20,000 bases of DNA from the IMG/VR virus record IMGVR_UViG_3300034378_000239, one strand, 5' to 3'. The translations under genes and the position numbers were made by a program. This DNA is from an uncultured virus (IMG/VR IMGVR_UViG_3300034378_000239). Lineage: Duplodnaviria > Heunggongvirae > Uroviricota > Caudoviricetes. Shown here piece by piece: positions 1,235 to 15,738 of the stretch. The notes below the pieces were generated by a model. The model did not search any database. It was given only the letters and a program-made list of their open reading frames with translations, and was not told the DNA's origin. The stretch's first letter is position 1. Each line of letters starts with the position of its first letter.

Positions 1235-4045
1235 TTATGCGTCGTGTGTCGGGTTTAGTATCTCCACGCACCAGACGTGTGAGTTTCGATACCTGACAGG
1301 CACGAGGCGTCGTCTTTCGAAAACGCGCTTGGTGAATCTGCGAAGATTGCGCGAAATGACGATGGGCGTCAATTTCGGTGCGATGACCTGGAGCGTCTCC
1401 TCGATGGCGGCGAGGGTTTCGCGCAGGCCCGGGGGCGGCTCGGAGACGAGCTCGAGCACGCGAGCGATCGTGCAGCCGGCGAGTTGCTGGCCGTCCTTGG
1501 TGAGCACGGTTTGGCCGTAGGGGCCCGCGGCGAGCTCGTGCCAGAGCCGAAGCAGGATCGGCATGGCGCTGGCTTCTTCTTCGGCCAGATCGGACAGCTC
1601 GCCGCGGGTGAGGCCGGGGTCGGGTTGGCCGCAGAACACGATCGCCTCGCGTACGAGGTCGGACCAGGGCTGAAACGATCCCCAGGGAATGGAGTCCGGG
1701 CTTTTCGGGCCGCCCGCGACGCAAAAGGCACGAAGCACGGTGAGGGCCGCACGGACGAGCCGCGACCGTTCCCTTTTCACGTACGAAAGCAGGTCGGGGT
1801 GAGCGAAGCCCGATCTTTCCTCGGGGTGCTCGAGCTCGCTTTCGAGGCGAACGTGAAGCGATCGCCTAGCGGTGTCGCCGCGGACGCGGACGTTGTTGCC
1901 GGTCGCGTACCAGCACGCCAAAAGCGGGATCCGGACCATCTTGTTCTTGCCGAGCGCGCGGTCGGACCAGTACGTGCCGGTGAGCGCGGCGTCGAGCGCC
2001 GAGGTCCCGAGGACCTTGGCGACGTTGTCGATGAGGATCAGGCGGTCGCCCTCCATGGTGACCGAGGTGATCCTCTTTCGTTCCTCCTCCTCGTCCTTGG
2101 ACTGGTTCATGCGGGCCATGGATCGACCCGTGACGATCTCGCCGATCACGTCGGAAAGGAGGGTCTTGCCGCAGCCGCGGACATTGCCGTCGATGATCAC
2201 CATGGGGCACGGTCCCTCGAACGCGAACCGTGCGAACGGTGTGAGCAGCCCGGCGATCCAGGCCGAGGCGTGGCGAGACGATGCGAGCGGGAAGTCGCGG
2301 ATCACCTCGACGAGCTCGGCGTACGCGGCCACGGCATCCTTTTGCGAGGGCCTTTCGGGCACCGGCAGAAAGTGCGCGGACGGGGCGTAGAAGATCCCGG
2401 TCTGGTCATCGTAGCCCGGGGCATCAAGCACGGTGCCGTCGGGGCGGAGCACCGGGCTTTCGGCCACGGCCCAGAGCTGACGGATCCCGGGCCACACGCC
2501 GCGCGTATGCACGTCCTTTTCGACCCAGGGCGGCGCGTGCGTGAGCACGAGCTCGCCCTCCTTGTTGTATTTTTTCCAGATGATGCTTTCGGCCATCATC
2601 GACCGGACCTGGGGCTCGGGGAGCGCGACGATCACGGGCGACCCCTTCGCCCTCTTGACGGGCCGGCTGGTTTCGGACGATACGATCATCGAGAGCGCGC
2701 CGGCGCGGGCGTAGAGGTCGGGGCGTCTGACGAGCGCGCGGATCGCCTGGTCGGCGACCTCGCGTTCCTCGGTGGTGATGATGATCGTGGGGCGCCCGGG
2801 CTTTTTGCCCCCTTTGCCGCCTCCGCCTTCGTCTTTGCCCTCGACGACGCGAAGGTCCGGAAGGCTCGCGTCGTCCTCGGGGGGGGCCTCGGCCGGGGCC
2901 TCGGCCTCGCCGCGCAGCTCAGGCGGGATGTCGGTGTCGCCTGGTGGTGGTGGGGGGGGCTCGTCCTCGCCGAGCTCGGGGCCCTGGGGCATGGCGCCTG
3001 ACACGTGCCTCGTACGTGGTCCCGCAGGTTGCGAAGGGGGTGCGTACCGATCCTCGGGCGGTGGCGGCGGCGGGACCTCGTCCCCTATGGGCGGCGCCTC
3101 GGGGCGTTCGTGCTCGACGTAGGTGATCGGGTCGCGCTCGCGCTCCTCATCGAGCCGATACCCGAACGGCTGGTCTCTGCGCTCGTGGATCGCCTTGAGC
3201 TTGCGCCAGAGCTCGTGTTCGTCCCACGGCGGGTCGCAGCGGCCGTTCCATACCAGGAGGATCTGCCAGAATTCGCAGGGCTCGAGCCCGAAGTCACCGC
3301 CTATGCCGCAGACGCCATTGGTCGCCTTCCAGCCACCCCGGCCCTCGATCGCCGGGGCCACGCGCTCCATGAACGCCTCGCAGCGCAGTAGCCTGCGCTC
3401 CATGGAGTGGTCGCCGAGCGAAAACGAAAGCGTCTTCTTGGCTGGCGGCCGGGCTTCGAGGAGGATCGCCTCGGGCACGGGCGCGAGCGGCGTTCCCCAG
3501 TTCTCCCAGGTGTAGAGGTTTCCCGAGCGGTGAAGCGAAGGCGGCGCGACCACGAAGTTTCCGCCCTGGGCGAGGAGGTCGAGCCCCGGCCGGAACTTGA
3601 TCCGCGTGCGGATCTGCCCGTCGTCGCAAAGAAAGTAGAAGTGGCGGCCACCACCGCCGGTCTTTGCGATGAGCGTTTCGGGGAGCGGGCCGCGCTCGTG
3701 CTCGAAGGCACGAAGCGCCTCGTCGCCGCCGTCTTTCACATCGAGGTCGAGGACCACGAAGTGCGAGCGCGCGCCGCCCGGGGCGAGCGCAATTCCGGCA
3801 TCGGGTACGCGATTCCAGTGCGCCCTGACCACGCGTTCGTCTCGGGTCGCATCGTGGACGCCGTGGCGGGTGTCGGGGTGCTTGCCGAGTTGGGTGCAGC
3901 TCGGGCGCCCGCACGAGCACCGGCCTTCGATGATCCGGTGGAGCGGCAAGACGAGCCAACCGCGCCGAGCGTATTCGAGCGCGATCTCAAGGTGCGATCC
4001 CGGAATCTGCGGCATCGGCGCGGCGTGCTGTTTATGCGCCGTCAC
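1235..4045 (-). CDS. Bifunctional DNA primase/polymerase (Prim-Pol, AEP superfamily) fused to a C-terminal P-loop helicase-like domain; replication protein
   Basis: Prim-Pol motifs ALEYARRGWLVLPL, GKHP, VVLDLDVK (DxD), TGGGGRHFYF and VVAPPSLHRSG; Pro/Glu-rich linker; Walker A GNVRGCGKT and Walker B LILIDNV. The GTG start overlaps the uORF stop (GTGA). Confidence 0.9.
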   Translation of the reverse strand: MTAHKQHAAPMPQIPGSHLEIALEYARRGWLVLPLHRIIEGRCSCGRPSCTQLGKHPDTRHGVHDATRDERVVRAHWNRVPDAGIALAPGGARSHFVVLDLDVKDGGDEALRAFEHERGPLPETLIAKTGGGGRHFYFLCDDGQIRTRIKFRPGLDLLAQGGNFVVAPPSLHRSGNLYTWENWGTPLAPVPEAILLEARPPAKKTLSFSLGDHSMERRLLRCEAFMERVAPAIEGRGGWKATNGVCGIGGDFGLEPCEFWQILLVWNGRCDPPWDEHELWRKLKAIHERRDQPFGYRLDEERERDPITYVEHERPEAPPIGDEVPPPPPPEDRYAPPSQPAGPRTRHVSGAMPQGPELGEDEPPPPPPGDTDIPPELRGEAEAPAEAPPEDDASLPDLRVVEGKDEGGGGKGGKKPGRPTIIITTEEREVADQAIRALVRRPDLYARAGALSMIVSSETSRPVKRAKGSPVIVALPEPQVRSMMAESIIWKKYNKEGELVLTHAPPWVEKDVHTRGVWPGIRQLWAVAESPVLRPDGTVLDAPGYDDQTGIFYAPSAHFLPVPERPSQKDAVAAYAELVEVIRDFPLASSRHASAWIAGLLTPFARFAFEGPCPMVIIDGNVRGCGKTLLSDVIGEIVTGRSMARMNQSKDEEEERKRITSVTMEGDRLILIDNVAKVLGTSALDAALTGTYWSDRALGKNKMVRIPLLACWYATGNNVRVRGDTARRSLHVRLESELEHPEERSGFAHPDLLSYVKRERSRLVRAALTVLRAFCVAGGPKSPDSIPWGSFQPWSDLVREAIVFCGQPDPGLTRGELSDLAEEEASAMPILLRLWHELAAGPYGQTVLTKDGQQLAGCTIARVLELVSEPPPGLRETLAAIEETLQVIAPKLTPIVISRNLRRFTKRVFERRRLVPVRYRNSHVWCVEILNPTHDA

Positions 4046-4491: not shown

Positions 4492-4614
4492 TCATAGCTT
4501 GCGCCTGAGCTCGCTTTCGATCCGCTCGAGGCGCCCGTCGATGCTCTGGAGCAGCTCGGCGATGATGCCGAGCGCGCGGATCAGCTGGAGGAGGTAGCCC
4601 TCCAGCTTGTCCAT
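4492..4614 (-). CDS. 40-aa amphipathic/coiled-coil peptide (MDKLEGYLLQLIRALGIIAELLQSIDGRLERIESELRRKL), not in the ORF track
   Basis: Hand translation; high-GC3 codons; starts 11 nt after the stop of the previous gene. Confidence 0.6.
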   Translation of the reverse strand: MDKLEGYLLQLIRALGIIAELLQSIDGRLERIESELRRKL

Positions 4615-4625
4615 CCACCGAAATC

Positions 4626-4859
4626 TCACGCGGCCCTCCTCGCCTCCTCGATCTGCCTCTGCCAGACCCGCTCGTACACGAGTTCCTCGACCTCATTGGC
4701 GCGGCGGCCGAGCACGCGCTCGAGCGCCTCGCGATGCGTGGGCCAGAGGTAGTAGGGGATCACCCGGTGGCGCCTGGGATCGAGGCCGCAGGCGAGGTCC
4801 TCCGCTGCGCCGGCCTTTGCGGCGGCGCGAATGATCGTCGCAGTCGTTTCAGTGTTCAT
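4626..4859 (-). CDS. Small hypothetical phage protein (MNTETTATII...)
   Basis: GGAAAGGA SD upstream of ATG 4859; start shortened relative to ORF 4626..4982. Confidence 0.65.
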   Translation of the reverse strand: MNTETTATIIRAAAKAGAAEDLACGLDPRRHRVIPYYLWPTHREALERVLGRRANEVEELVYERVWQRQIEEARRAA

Positions 4860-4880
4860 GGGTTTAGTTGGTCCTTTCCG

Positions 4881-4975
4881 ACCCCGCGCCAGGAGTCGCA
4901 CCTGGCAACCCGCGTGTCCGAGAGCAGATGTATCGCGCTTCCCTCCGTTTGTTGCGGGTTCCACTGGGGCGGGGC
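4881..4975 (-). ncRNA. tRNA-like structured RNA element (acceptor-like stem plus T-arm-like hairpin); not a canonical tRNA
   Basis: GCCCCGC/GCGGGGU closing stem; CCCAGUGG D-loop-like linker; AACCCGC/GCGGGUU stem; GCCAGG-UGCGACU-CCUGGC hairpin with a 7-nt T-like loop. Fills an intergenic gap. Confidence 0.45.
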
Positions 4976-4991
4976 AGATCACGCTTCTTCA

Positions 4992-5246
4992 CTAGAGCTC
5001 CTTTATGAGCGCGATCAGCCTTTCGCGGAGCTCGGTTTTGACCTTCTGCTCGCGGGCCCAGAGTTCGGGGTTGTCGACGATGTGCGGCGTGGCGCGTGAG
5101 ACACCTTTGAGCTGCAGGATCGCGGCAACGAGCGGCTGCACGTCATCGATGCGGTAGTCGTCCTTGAGCGCGACGGTGATGGCGTTGGTGACGGGCCTTC
5201 TGTCGGTTAGGGTGATCGTTCTCTTCTTGGGTTCCGTGGTGTTCAT
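4992..5246 (-). CDS. Small hypothetical phage protein, 84 aa
   Basis: AAGGAAACCACC-ATG start; typical codon usage. Confidence 0.7.
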   Translation of the reverse strand: MNTTEPKKRTITLTDRRPVTNAITVALKDDYRIDDVQPLVAAILQLKGVSRATPHIVDNPELWAREQKVKTELRERLIALIKEL

Positions 5247-5261
5247 GGTGGTTTCCTTGGT

Positions 5262-5326
5262 GGCCCTGGTTCGTCAAGCGGGGTAGGGCCGGGTTCCCCG
5301 CGACGGCCCCGCGGGGCCGTTTCGCC
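5262..5326 (-). ncRNA. Type II hammerhead ribozyme-like RNA with a loop I/3'-tail pseudoknot (two core deviations)
   Basis: GGC-GAAA-CGGCCCC GC GGGGCCG-UC^-GCGGGG(AACCCGGCCCUA)CCCCGC-UUGACGA-ACC-AGGGCC. Predicted cleavage after GUC, between 5302 and 5301. Confidence 0.65.
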
Positions 5327-5370
5327 TAGTCGGTCTCCTCCAGGTGTGCCGCAACGGCGCGGCCGAGCTT

Positions 5371-5431
5371 CCCATATCGAAGTCTTCGGTTTCTTCTCCA
5401 CCTCCACGAAGTGTATGAATTTATAACGCAT
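5371..5431 (-). pseudogene. Truncated 5' end of a low-GC gene (MRYKFIHFVEVEKKPKTSIWE), reading on through the junction to 5243
   Basis: GGAGG SD and AT-rich codons for ~20 codons, then an abrupt switch to GC-rich, non-protein-like sequence that runs across the hammerhead. Confidence 0.5.
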
Positions 5432-5465
5432 ATCTGTTAACCTCCGTTCTTGTTAACCACTCGCG

Positions 5466-5702
5466 TCACGTTGGTTTCGTGTTGATAATTGGCGATTCCT
5501 GAACAGCAATCAAATCCCGCAAATGTTTCGCATTTCCATGTTCCCCTATCGACTCGTACAATCGGATACAGACTTCAACATCTTCCCGGCTTCCACGAAA
5601 ATCGTACAACCGATAAATGGCAGCAAGCTCCGACTCCGACAAATCGGTAATAGTGCTTAGACCCCGCATATGACCAGCCCCAATCGCATATTCCAACGTC
5701 AT
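5466..5702 (-). CDS. Hypothetical protein, 78 aa, low-GC (MTLEYAIGAG...)
   Basis: GGAGG-ttgtt-ATG at 5702; codon usage differs from the flanking genes. Confidence 0.65.
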   Translation of the reverse strand: MTLEYAIGAGHMRGLSTITDLSESELAAIYRLYDFRGSREDVEVCIRLYESIGEHGNAKHLRDLIAVQESPIINTKPT

Positions 5703-5810
5703 AACAACCTCCATTTTTGTTTCTGGCAATATTCACTCATCGAAACACGCTGACGGTTCCGCGCAAAATCCTGACCTGCCCGGTGATGTAGCGGCACGCC
5801 TTGCCATTGA

Positions 5811-6146
5811 TTAGTCCCTCCTGAAATACGACCCGTGCCGGTCCAGCCACGTCTGGAGCGCGTGCTTACTCATCTCCGCGCTCTCGGCTGACACGCGGAA
5901 AATCGGCTCCGCGCGGGTCGCCTCCGACTGGAGGAACACCGAACATCGGAATCGAACCAGCGGGTCTGACGACTCGATGCGAGTGACCGTCAGCAACATG
6001 TCGTCGCCATCCTCGTATTCGAATCCACCCTGGCCGTCCTGGTGCCATTCGATGGGCTCTGGCGTGGCCACCTCTGCGGCAGGCACGAGCACCATTGGCG
6101 TCAGCGTGCCGTCGTCTTCGATGCGACAGATTTTATCAGTCCTCAC
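5811..6146 (-). CDS. Hypothetical protein, 111 aa, possibly chimeric (MRTDKICRIEDDG...)
   Basis: TAA-c-AGGAGGAG-agct-GTG start lying inside the long ORF 5811..6836. Confidence 0.5.
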   Translation of the reverse strand: MRTDKICRIEDDGTLTPMVLVPAAEVATPEPIEWHQDGQGGFEYEDGDDMLLTVTRIESSDPLVRFRCSVFLQSEATRAEPIFRVSAESAEMSKHALQTWLDRHGSYFRRD

Positions 6147-13103: not shown

Positions 13104-14237
13104 CTAGCCCTCGGCGAACGCGTGCCGAACGGGCGCGAGCGGGCTTCGCTCGAGACGCGCGACCACCCTCGAGATCTGCGCGATCGCAATGTCGACGTCC
13201 TTGCGTTTGGTGAAGCGACCGAGCGAGACCCGGAGCACGGCGTCGCGTATGCCCATGGCCTTCATCACGTGGCTCGGTCCATCGGCCGCGCACGCCGATC
13301 CGGCCGAGCAGCAGATCCGCTGGCACACGAACGTGAGCAAGCGGTCGCCGTCGAGGCCGGGGAAGCGTAGACACGTGATCCCCGGGACCCGGGGTGCGTT
13401 CTGGCCCGCGATCCGCACGCCGAGCTTCTCGACGAGCCGGTCGCGAAGCGCCCCGAGGCGCCTTTCTTCGGCCGGAAGGTTCTTTTGGGCGAGGCGCACG
13501 GCCTCCGCGAACCCGACGCACGCCGGCGTGTTCGATGTGCCGGCGCGCATGCGCATTTCCTGGCGGCCGCCCACGATCTGCGGAACGATCTTGACACCCT
13601 CGCGAACGAACAGCACCCCGATCCCCTTCGGGCCGTAGGCCTTGTGGCTCGAGAGCGAAACGAGGTCGAGGCCGGCGACGTCGAGCTCGATACGACCCAG
13701 GGCCTGGGCGGCATCGACGTGAAAGAGCGCGCCGACCTTGCGACAGATCCTCGAGATCGCGCGAAGTGGCTGGAGCACGCCGGTCTCGTTGTTTATGGCC
13801 ATGACCGAAACGAGCGACCCGGGCCGGGCCACCTCCTCGATGAGGGCCGGGTCGACCAGGCCTTCGCGATCGACCGGGAGCACGTCGAGATCCGCGCCGC
13901 GCCTTTCGATGACCTCACCCGACCCCAAGATCGCCTTGTGCTCGGTGGCCACGGTCACGAGGTGCGGGTCCAGGGCGCCATCCGCGTACCCCTGGACGGC
14001 GAGGTTGTCGGCCTCGGTGGCGCCCGAGCAGAACACGACCTCGTGCGGCTTGGCGCCGATGGCGCTGGCGATCTCCTTGCGCGCGCGCGCCACGGCGTCG
14101 TGCGAGCTTTTGCCCTCGGGATGGGATGCGGCCGCGTTGGCGGCGCTGAGCCAGGGCGCCATGGTGGCGGCCACGCGCTTGTCGAGGGGGCACGTGGCCG
14201 CATAGTCCAGATACGGCCGCTCGTTGCACCTACGCAC
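13104..14237 (-). CDS. iscS: Cysteine desulfurase (IscS/NifS group I, PLP-dependent)
   Basis: YLDYAAT, SGATEADN, TEHKA, NNETG, FHVDAAQ, SSHKAYGPKG (PLP Lys), RAGT and SAGSAC (catalytic Cys). GGAGG SD before GTG 14237. Confidence 0.92.
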   Translation of the reverse strand: MRRCNERPYLDYAATCPLDKRVAATMAPWLSAANAAASHPEGKSSHDAVARARKEIASAIGAKPHEVVFCSGATEADNLAVQGYADGALDPHLVTVATEHKAILGSGEVIERRGADLDVLPVDREGLVDPALIEEVARPGSLVSVMAINNETGVLQPLRAISRICRKVGALFHVDAAQALGRIELDVAGLDLVSLSSHKAYGPKGIGVLFVREGVKIVPQIVGGRQEMRMRAGTSNTPACVGFAEAVRLAQKNLPAEERRLGALRDRLVEKLGVRIAGQNAPRVPGITCLRFPGLDGDRLLTFVCQRICCSAGSACAADGPSHVMKAMGIRDAVLRVSLGRFTKRKDVDIAIAQISRVVARLERSPLAPVRHAFAEG

Positions 14238-14544
14238 GCTCGCCCCGCCTCCTCCGGGTGGTGGTACCCCAGATCGTGGGAAGCAGCACAGAGCCTCCCA
14301 GGGCCGCAGAGAGGCTGGTGGCCTCGAGCGCGTACGAGCCGCTCGCTGCAGCACCACCGCCGAGCAGGAGGGCGTAAAGACCCGAGATCGCGTTCTCCGA
14401 GCGCAGCCTTTGCGTGCCCTCCAGAAGCGCGAAGGAAAACGCCGTCAAACAGCCGAGCGCGAGCGCGCTCAAAGGGCCGGTGGCGAGCAGGCCCAAAAGG
14501 CCGCAAGTAGCGCCCGCGATCGCATAGTAGGCGAGCCACCTCAC
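14230..14544 (-). CDS. Small multi-pass membrane protein, 104 aa
   Basis: 3-4 hydrophobic segments and a basic tail; GTGA overlap with the MTase stop. Confidence 0.6.
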   Translation of the reverse strand: MRWLAYYAIAGATCGLLGLLATGPLSALALGCLTAFSFALLEGTQRLRSENAISGLYALLLGGGAAASGSYALEATSLSAALGGSVLLPTIWGTTTRRRRGERA

Positions 14545-15222
14545 AGGGAGGAGAATACCATGGCCACGCGAAGCCTGGTTTCTGCGAGGCGGAAGGCGCG
14601 CGAGTCGATCTCCCCGCCCGAAAAGCGCCTGCCCTCGCGCAAGCAAGCGACGCCCGTGGTACCCGCGCCCGCGCACGGGTCGCACACGAGCTCGCCCGGT
14701 CGACTGTAGTCGCGCACGATCGCACGCATGAGCACCTCGGGCTTGTCACCCGGGATCACGGGACGCGCGCTTCGCTTGACCACATACGCGCCGGGCAGCG
14801 TGCCCCACGCGGCCATTTTTCTCGTACGTGGTCTGGCCACGATGAGCCACACCGTCCAGCTCGACGGGCCGTCGCCGCGTAGCCGAACTCGCGACCCACG
14901 GATCACGCACGGGATCGGTGCGAACACGTAGCGTCCGACCGCGCCGAGCCCCCGTTCCCAGTGCGGAGCGAGCACGTGATCCGTGAGCACGCACACCCAT
15001 CCGCGCGCGACCTCTGCGAAAAGGCGCGCCGCGCGAAGGACCTCCTCCTCCCCCCAGAACCCGAAACCGATCGGCGCGCGTCCGGCCCCCGTCGCCCCGC
15101 GATCATGACCACCGTGAGTGCGCGCGCTGTACGGCGGATCAGTGATCAGGTGGTCGCAAGAGGCGCGCGAAAAGCCCGCGTCCGGAGAGAAGAGATCTCC
15201 CCTCTTCAGGATCCAATCAGGC
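14541..15222 (-). CDS. DNA N4-cytosine/N6-adenine methyltransferase (beta class); start codon unclear
   Basis: LITDPPY (motif IV) precedes KPEVLM and LVCDPCAGAGTT (motif I). Confidence 0.8.
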
Positions 15223-15738
15223 TGCCCGGTAGGAGGCGCCGCGACCGTGGCCCTGCTTTTTGATCGTCTTGGCGCCGAGGAGCCTTTGGATCGCGGGCCG
15301 AAATTGCCCCTCGGGGATCTTGGCACCCGCGATGATCTCGCGCTTGGTCGCGCTCGACGTCCCGGCGAGAAACGCAGCAATCTTGCCGTCCACGTTATTC
15401 GGGTCGGAGCTCGAAACCACTCGAGGTGGTGCGCTCTTCTTTGATGATTTCGCTTTGGTTTTTGCCTTGGTCTTGACTTTGCGCTTTTTGCGGCCGTTTT
15501 TGGCCTGGGCCGGTTTTCTTGAGGTTTTCAGGGGCGTGGGCCTGGGCGCGCGGGCGTGCTCGAGAACCTCTTCGAACGTCATGGTCTTGAGCGCCTCGAG
15601 CGCGACGTCGTCGCCCTCGAGATAGGTTTCGAGCGTCTCGATCGTCATCTTGGGATTCGCGGCGATGAGCTCGCAGATCGCGGCTTTGTGCGCACCGCTC
15701 CGAAACGCCTCGAAATCCGCCATTACGTGATCCGCCAT
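15217..15738 (-). CDS. Basic DNA-binding protein: acidic N-domain, Lys-rich linker and C-terminal winged-helix-like domain
   Basis: AAAGGA SD; KNGRKKRKVKTKAKTKAK; KREIIAGAKI...AIQRLLGAKTIKKQGHGRGASY. Confidence 0.65.
   Translation of the reverse strand: MADHVMADFEAFRSGAHKAAICELIAANPKMTIETLETYLEGDDVALEALKTMTFEEVLEHARAPRPTPLKTSRKPAQAKNGRKKRKVKTKAKTKAKSSKKSAPPRVVSSSDPNNVDGKIAAFLAGTSSATKREIIAGAKIPEGQFRPAIQRLLGAKTIKKQGHGRGASYRAA

Follow-up and report, generated by a model that had tools for sequence, protein, structure and literature searches.

The minus strand of a 20,000-nucleotide stretch from an uncultured Caudoviricetes virus (IMG/VR record IMGVR_UViG_3300034378_000239; the whole stretch is called the window here) carries, from position 5326 down to 5262, all the elements of a type II hammerhead ribozyme in the correct order. 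This segment almost certainly descends from the type II pseudoknot hammerheads of phages. It differs from them at two core positions, with U in place of C3 and A in place of G10.1, and we give about even odds (a probability of roughly 0.5) to the reading that it would still cleave, slowly and partially, as an attenuated rather than a fast processing site. Slow cleavage is to be expected because both changes weaken the core, C3-to-U leaving a U3–G8 wobble and G10.1-to-A leaving an A–C mismatch. Type II hammerheads are abundant between phage genes, and their biological role has only been guessed. The copy in the window amounts to a natural experiment on the core variation that the pseudoknot scaffold tolerates, and copies like it are overlooked at the Rfam threshold.

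Anatomy and ancestry of the motif

An earlier note on this DNA had described GAAA, stem III, a GUC site, a 6-bp stem I and UUGACGA in type II order, a loop I GGCCCU perfectly complementary to the tail AGGGCC, and a core with U for C3, A for G10.1 and a very short stem II. Direct reading of the minus strand bears this out (Table 1). From 5328 to 5244 the order is UAG, G-C, GAAA, stem III, C17, stem I, UUGACGA, ACC, AGGGCC, ACC, AAGGAAA, CCACC and AUG. G12 A13 A14 is followed by the A15.1–U16.1 pair that opens stem III (5323–5320 with U5303); this stem pairs 5320–5314 with 5309–5303 around a loop at 5313–5310 and is present in the minimum-free-energy fold. The cleavage triplet, G5304 U5303 C5302, conforms to NUH, H17 being other than G. 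The scissile bond is predicted to lie between 5302 and 5301, in which case the 3′ product would start with a 5′-OH G5301. Stem I pairs 5301–5296 with 5283–5278 around a loop at 5295–5284, and six Watson–Crick pairs join 5290–5285 to 5267–5262 as the pseudoknot. In stem II, G5326 pairs with C5268 and G5325 with C5269, while C5324 lies opposite A5270; G5326 doubles as G11.3 and as the final base of the TAG triplet at 5328–5326. Stems I and III are thus loop-capped and stem II is open, as in the type II permutation, with helices of 7 bp, 6 bp and 2 bp plus a mismatch. Outside 10.1–11.1, the 19 stem and pseudoknot pairs in the window have zero mismatches.

Two elements of the standard core are lacking. 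U at position 3 permits only a wobble with G8 where C3 should pair, the neighbouring U4–A9 pair being present, and the closing pair G10.1–C11.1 is replaced by A5270 facing C5324, which cmsearch flags as non-standard. An alternative register, in which the last cytosine of stem I would serve as C3 and be followed by an extra U, was rejected: it breaks the 1.1–2.1 pair and is impossible in other relatives with U3.

Table 1. Positions of the hammerhead elements and of the downstream translation start
Feature	Position	Strand	Basis
Stem II, 5′ strand, G11.3 G11.2 C11.1	5326, 5325, 5324	minus	direct reading, R1 alignment
Core G12 A13 A14	5323–5321	minus	direct reading, Rfam and R1 alignments
Stem III hairpin, 7 bp, loop CGCG	5320–5303	minus	direct reading, Rfam alignment
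C17	5302	minus	position in both model alignments
Stem I hairpin, 6 bp GCGGGG/CCCCGC, 12-nt loop AACCCGGCCCUA	5301–5278	minus	reading, R1
Loop I GGCCCU, pseudoknot partner	5290–5285	minus	reading, shuffle test
Core U3 U4 G5 A6 C7 G8 A9 (UUGACGA)	5277–5271	minus	reading, Rfam and R1 alignments
Stem II, 3′ strand, A10.1 C10.2 C10.3	5270–5268	minus	R1 alignment, non-standard pair flagged
3′ tail AGGGCC, pseudoknot strand	5267–5262	minus	reading, shuffle test, family covariation
Shine–Dalgarno-like AAGGAAA	5258–5252	minus	direct reading
ATG of the 84-aa open reading frame 5246..4992	5246–5244	minus	exact match in protein collection

The earlier note had proposed a search with the Rfam model Hammerhead_II (RF02276). 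The motif is aligned over model positions 1–66, at full length, with 26.5 bits against a gathering score of 37 (E = 0.0018 for a 301-nt stretch and 0.12 for the whole window), the top bit score among the 6 sub-threshold Rfam matches listed for the window; the proposed search thus finds the motif, but below the threshold. Because C3, the G10.1–C11.1 pair and the Rfam threshold are all missed, we class the segment as a relative with a variant core, short of certified membership. A score of 26.5 bits is roughly that to be expected of a genuine member altered at two core positions: L262 and L272, canonical relatives that share the 6-bp stem I and have a AACCGCCCUA loop, score only 37.4–39.8 bits, and U3 costs some 5–7 bits among orthologues (39.4–43.3 bits with U3 vs 44.5–48.5).

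A separate observation concerns the model itself. In the RF02276 consensus the two stem II pairs join model positions 2–3 ('gG') to the 'Gc' past the core, and the C before GAAA is unpaired; in the aligned sequences that C pairs with G10.1, and the stem II pairs of the model look one position off. This offset probably costs members with a short stem II some score.

To find relatives, viral contigs were scanned with the pattern CGAAACGGCC-N4-12-GGCCGTC-N18-40-TGANGA, which gave at least 126 stretches. Among the matches listed, 123 were unique and 120 had a stem I of at least 4 bp; counts for relatives in this text rest on these. They share a stop triplet (UAA, UAG or UGA), G plus a pyrimidine, CGAAAC, stem III and GUC, followed by a stem I of 6–8 bp, by CUGAUGA, after which a U or A may be inserted, and by a 3-bp stem II. 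Then come a tail (A)GGGC(A), paired with loop I, a GAAAGGAG-like Shine–Dalgarno (SD) motif and ATG. The closest look-alikes of the window copy are L272 and L262. In both, stem I has 6 bp, loop I is AACCGCCCUA and the tail is AGGGCA, against AACC-CG-GCCCUA (with CG inserted relative to AACCGCCCUA) and AGGGCC in the window. In 63 of the 120 relatives, A9 and G10.1 are separated by one added nucleotide, usually U and seldom A, which the Rfam model handles as an insertion.

Fifty of the 120 relatives were aligned, chosen as the sub-groups with a 6–7-bp stem I and including all five UUGAUGA copies. The family structure, with the pseudoknot, has 92.8% of its cells paired, and 10 of its 21 pairs change on both sides, a result matched in 0 of 500 shuffles and approached by no slid register of six. 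All 6 stem I pairs covary, as do pseudoknot columns 41–44 with 65–68, and stem II columns 5–7 pair with 61–63 in 50 of 50 sequences. G12 A13 A14 is invariant in this alignment, an invariance imposed by the search pattern.

A covariance model of 73 positions, R1, was built from the same 50 sequences. The window motif aligns with every one of these positions and reaches 46.1 bits (E 9e-11); the next-best match in the window, with filters off, reaches 10.5 bits. Because the pattern that had gathered the members of R1 derived from stem III of the window itself, two controls were run. In 163 unrelated loci (534,511 + 480,089 = 1,014,600 bases) the R1 maximum was 17.5 bits, apart from L001, which is itself a hammerhead and scored 40.1 bits. 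The second control used the same DNA pattern in bacterial genomes, where it gave at least 123 stretches, 122 of them unique. Among these listed matches 74 lack a stem I of at least 4 bp and have any base at position 3, as chance matches do; together with three doubtful ones (77 loci) they score at most 29.1 bits, the exception being three loci that the stem I filter had misjudged and that are real hammerheads at 60–79 bits. The window motif is therefore placed, at full length and with 46.1 bits vs maxima of 17.5 and 29.1, in the sub-lineage with the CGAAACGGCC...GGCCGUC stem III.

The pseudoknot pairs are scored by neither model. In 100,000 composition-preserving shuffles of loop and tail, a 6-bp pseudoknot arose in 0.29% (P ∼0.003), and one starting at the first tail base, as in the relatives, in 0.05%. 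A nested folding algorithm prefers the pseudoknot helix over stem I, with a nested minimum of −33 kcal/mol; the nested hammerhead fold has −25.3 to −26.0 kcal/mol, to which the pseudoknot duplex adds up to −10.8. The full-length Rfam alignment and the comparison with relatives uphold the identification as a type II pseudoknot hammerhead. Such hammerheads were described by Perreault et al. (2011; PMC3088659), who report the loop I/3′-tail pseudoknot, of at least 4 bp in most type II members, and a clustering in prophages.

The variant core

Of the 123 viral relatives, 117 have C at position 3 and 6 have U; A and G never occur there. One U3 copy (L001/L274) has UUGACGA like the window and scores 35.3 bits with Rfam. 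The other five (L173, L174, L235, L243 and L266) have UUGAUGA and share an orthologous site that precedes a conserved 144-aa gene, in records of about 13.5 kb, three of which are rated 100% complete and two of which have inverted terminal repeats. Each record has one hammerhead only. A tree was built from 1,300 nt downstream of the site in 13 of the 15 fetched records, leaving out L429 (truncated gene) and L431 (different gene). In it the five U3 rows and one C3 row form a clade with support of 93/95 and terminal branches of 0.03–0.09; the best tree has two allele changes, and a single origin of U3 is also compatible. Stems stay paired throughout the U3 clade, the 1.1–2.1 pair being U–A in some rows and C–G in others. 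The U3 allele is recorded also under L421–L425, and C3 orthologues are L166, L168, L204 and L426–L435.

The U3–G8 combination has thus persisted through roughly 10% divergence in viable-looking genomes. Because the allele persists with intact structure, U3 seems, to judge from these comparisons, to be tolerated in the pseudoknot scaffold. It is the prevailing allele, in the sole hammerhead, of a clade of complete small phages, which is hard to square with the textbook view of C3 as indispensable and may outweigh the single copy in the window in interest. In the accessible literature we did not find a natural U3 with G8 retained, nor 'U3-G8' together with 'hammerhead'; 'C3U' occurs in a single paper.

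Three stretches with an identical motif from three metagenomes (L002, L003 and L004) have CGAAAC, stem III, GUC, a bulged stem I and UUGACGA, with an 8-bp complement between loop and tail (GGGUGCGG with CCGCACCC). They match neither the Rfam model nor R1, and possibly represent a further U3 hammerhead, one whose stem II is a single base pair.

For position 10.1, a complete scan for A after A9 gave six stretches. Two are artefacts of a second TGA..GA, one has another layout, and two have an extra A before G10.1. The sixth, L295, lies on an IMG/VR contig and is otherwise canonical, with CUGAUGA-AGC-AGGGCA opposite a 5′ GCC; it may have either an A10.1–C11.1 mismatch or an extra A and a 1-bp stem II, and no SD motif occurs within 30 nt downstream of it.

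Genomic setting

The window is a phage-like contig of 65% GC with genes mostly on the minus strand, among them a prim-pol/helicase-like gene (1235–4045), an amidase and a DNA methylase. The earlier note had placed the motif between a stop codon and the next SD, and had stated that type II hammerheads with such pseudoknots occur between small phage genes. The latter agrees with Perreault et al. (2011) and with the listed relatives, 90 of 120 having a stop triplet at most 7 nt before CGAAAC and 101 of 120 an SD-like motif and start codon downstream. In the window, the TAG at 5328–5326 overlaps G11.3, an SD-like motif and a start codon follow, and the start codon comes 25 nt after A9, which is also the median in the relatives; the placement is that of the sub-lineage. 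Both the TAG and the SD motif are where they had been reported, but the TAG ends no recognizable gene: counted from 5436, its reading frame runs for just 36 codons without a stop, and ATG, GTG and TTG are all missing from it. A 62-codon open reading frame (5431..5243, minus strand), with GGAGG 9 nt before its ATG, reads through the ribozyme and overlaps the next gene by ATGA. A +1 shift would fuse the TAG-closed frame (5326–5436) with it (5243–5431), and this arrangement of two frames may reflect erosion, an assembly indel or a leader peptide.

The 84-aa open reading frame downstream of the motif was called by the source's gene caller, since its exact product is in the protein collection; its GC content at third codon positions (GC3) is 0.85, and its protein has no relative among 5.8 billion clusters. 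Just upstream of the motif is a low-GC island (∼5380–5790, 43–51% GC) that holds an orphan 82-aa gene (5714..5469, GC3 0.48), recorded on a second contig too. The hammerhead sits at the downstream edge of the island, on what would be the boundary between an acquired cassette, as the low GC suggests, and the GC-rich replication genes. For positions 4600–6000 no sequencing run is listed, and hence no RNA data set. No sigma-70-like promoter was found on the minus strand between 4900 and 5900, and Rfam and R1 searches found no other hammerhead in the window.

An orthologous locus was sought in several ways. Positions 4900–5800 gave no blastn match among phage records, the 91-nt motif gave only short GC-rich chance matches at E up to 10, and no viral contig with the 84-aa and prim-pol proteins was confirmed. 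The closest relative of the 936-aa prim-pol protein (1235–4045, minus strand) is P0002, with 75% identity over 40% of the query; the two are close only over about the first 330 residues and the C-terminal part is unrelated, a pattern that, from these alignments, points to domain shuffling in the replication protein. An alignment with P0002 led to relatives at no more than 41% identity, generic prim-pol patterns in a metagenome scan to no more than 51% among the matches listed, and genome contigs yielded no orthologous locus. Hammerheads of this type occur in 0 of 160 listed prim-pol loci. The only match to a 24-base window-specific pattern (GG-CGAAAC ... ACCAGGGC), L291, lacks the stems and was set aside as a chance match.

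Elsewhere in the window, a class-V aminotransferase-like gene (PF00266, phrog_12787; 13104–14357) adjoins a DNA methylase fragment (14541–15380, both minus strand), and the two may form a nucleotide or DNA modification module.

Possible slow cleavage, its rivals and known hammerheads

If the motif acts as a slow processing site, it would lie on a minus-strand transcript that crosses from the low-GC cassette into two genes, the 84-aa one and that of the prim-pol replication protein. Stems III and I would fold during transcription, and loop I would pair with the tail, docking stem I beside the 2-bp stem II. The 2′-OH of C5302 would then attack its own 3′ phosphate, with G12 (5323) as the putative general base and the 2′-OH of G8 (5272) as the putative general acid. 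Cleavage would leave the upstream RNA with a terminal 2′,3′-cyclic phosphate right after the stem III hairpin, and the downstream messenger RNA would begin with 5′-OH G5301 and stem I, followed past the pseudoknot tail by the SD motif and the ATG. A role of hammerheads in processing polycistronic mRNA is given as a suggestion in a 2019 review (PMC6765202).

Several observations weigh against a cleaving copy of this kind. No Rfam match is obtained in the window at gathering thresholds, the motif falling short of 37 bits, and its minimum free energy is ordinary against shuffles (z = −0.02 on the minus strand and −0.91 on the plus strand). In the listed bacterial-genome sample, each of the 45 hammerheads passing the stem I filter carries C at position 3. 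G10.1 is present in 118 of 120 relatives, including those with an extra base after A9, and on present comparisons A10.1 is rare to unprecedented, with at most one possible precedent, L295, of ambiguous register. Roberts et al. (2023; PMC9901934), working with a type III hammerhead, report that every single change in the CUGA turn gave low co-transcriptional activity, with rescue only by a swap of C:G for G:C. Two near-invariant positions changed in one copy would be the picture of early decay, and no orthologous locus was found from which selection on it could be gauged.

The most serious competitor, quite possible and still somewhat less probable than slow cleavage, is that the hammerhead was recently inactivated, U3 and A10.1 having abolished useful cleavage and left a GC-rich structured spacer, perhaps a stabilizing hairpin, before the 84-aa gene, too young to have decayed further. 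Besides the rarity of both changes and the type III mutants, this is favoured by natural core variants that are inactive in the account of Perreault et al. (2011), by the lack of any other hammerhead in the window, and by the TAG frame without a start, which hints at erosion or rearrangement beside the low-GC insertion. Against it stand the perfect state of the 19 other helix pairs with the 6-bp pseudoknot and the retention of U3 alone in viable-looking phage genomes. Moreover, if two random hits fell on ∼57 constrained positions, the probability that both would lie within the ∼15 of the core is ∼0.07. If dead, the window copy is an ordinary relic. Of the outcomes left side by side by the earlier note (active, attenuated or decaying), the analysis retains attenuated or recently dead.

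It is rather unlikely that slow cleavage in a 'double-wobble' hammerhead, with U3–G8 and a protonatable A10.1–C11.1, was itself selected as a conditional processing site. Cleavage would in that case be set by Mg2+/Mn2+, by pH or by competition with ribosomes on the 62-codon frame, and would fix how much of the cassette transcript is split off from the mRNA of the replication gene; the U3 alleles in the complete 13.5-kb phages would be a second, independent selected attenuation.

Full competence is more doubtful still. The U3–G8 wobble and A10.1–C11.1, possibly as a protonated A+–C wobble, would have to be accommodated with near-normal cleavage. The persistence of the U3 clade and the intact structure speak for this, as do the natural hammerheads of Perreault et al. 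(2011) that tolerate a stem II of 1–2 bp and a 10.1–11.1 mismatch; from general chemistry, A10.1 should also retain N7 for the A9/G10.1 metal site. The near-invariance of C3 and G10.1 among the relatives and the unfavourable mutational data of Roberts et al. (2023) argue the other way, and U–U is the best of the mispaired combinations in Perreault et al. (2011), implying that A–C is worse.

We consider it very improbable, although compatible with the other explanations, that the segment is primarily coding and its RNA structure secondary or competing. The 62-codon frame exists, with a good SD motif and the ATGA overlap, but its GC3 is 0.55 vs 0.84–0.85 in the neighbouring genes. Its exact product is absent from the protein collection, in which both neighbours are present, and it was not called by the source's gene caller. 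A HMMER search of 1.84 billion representatives gave one match, a 1557-aa protein aligned in 11 stretches and read as low-complexity, and the stop, SD and start flanking most relatives form an intergenic pattern.

That the segment is unrelated to ribozymes, and that a genome of 65% GC has here formed GC-rich hairpins by chance or holds an intrinsic terminator or a repeat element, can hardly be credited and is largely refuted: the ordinary folding energy, the many chance matches of the pattern in GC-rich bacterial genomes and the stray match L291 would allow it, but chance matches stay at or below 29.1 bits with R1 vs 46.1, the full architecture is present with pseudoknot, stem II, SD spacing and loop sequence, no terminator-like site lies at the motif on either strand, and the window has no second copy of the stem III palindrome.

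Slow cleavage, the reading we prefer, can be set beside known hammerheads. The segment resembles RF02276 in the order of its elements, in GAAA, A15.1–U16.1, GUC and U4–A9, in a stem II of 2–3 bp followed directly by the pseudoknot, and in its intergenic phage site just before an SD motif; it differs in U3, A10.1, the score of 26.5 bits vs 37 and a 12-nt loop I. The U3 hammerheads of the 13.5-kb phages (records G001–G005) are of the same lineage and architecture, with the U3–G8 wobble in a ribozyme that is otherwise intact, but they keep G10.1–C11.1, score above the Rfam threshold (39.4–43.3 bits) and have U and not C at N7; their genomes are AT-richer than the window and unrelated to it.

The same UUGACGA core is found in the saltern variant HHphage (PMC3088659; sequence in PMC7151607), written there as U2a G2b U3 U4 G5 A6 C7 G8 A9. 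HHphage comes from hypersaline viral fractions and has a 2-nt insertion beside stem I, which stem I of the window does not need; the assay described was on the sister variant HHmeta and not on HHphage. A halophile origin for the window, prompted by this likeness, was rejected, its proteins not being acidic.

Natural variants of phage and bacterial hammerheads that have been tested also deviate at supposedly invariant positions and yet cleave, often slowly or with altered metal preference. They include the U3–A8 covariation, active hammerheads with a stem II of 1–2 bp and a U10.1–U11.1 mismatch, all in Perreault et al. (2011), where other core variants cleave slowly or not at all, and the A6C form of Bcep176; according to Naghdi et al. 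(2020; PMC7151607), Mn2+ becomes the preferred metal with A6C. Of these tested variants, none combines U3 with a retained G8 and none has A10.1 opposite C11.1. In the pseudoknot hammerhead whose crystal structure appeared in 2024 (PMC11300833), the pseudoknot serves as a tertiary brace, as it would in the window, and C3–G8 and G10.1–C11.1 are paired; in that form, however, the pseudoknot replaces helix II and an extra stem-loop is present, whereas the window copy keeps its short stem II.

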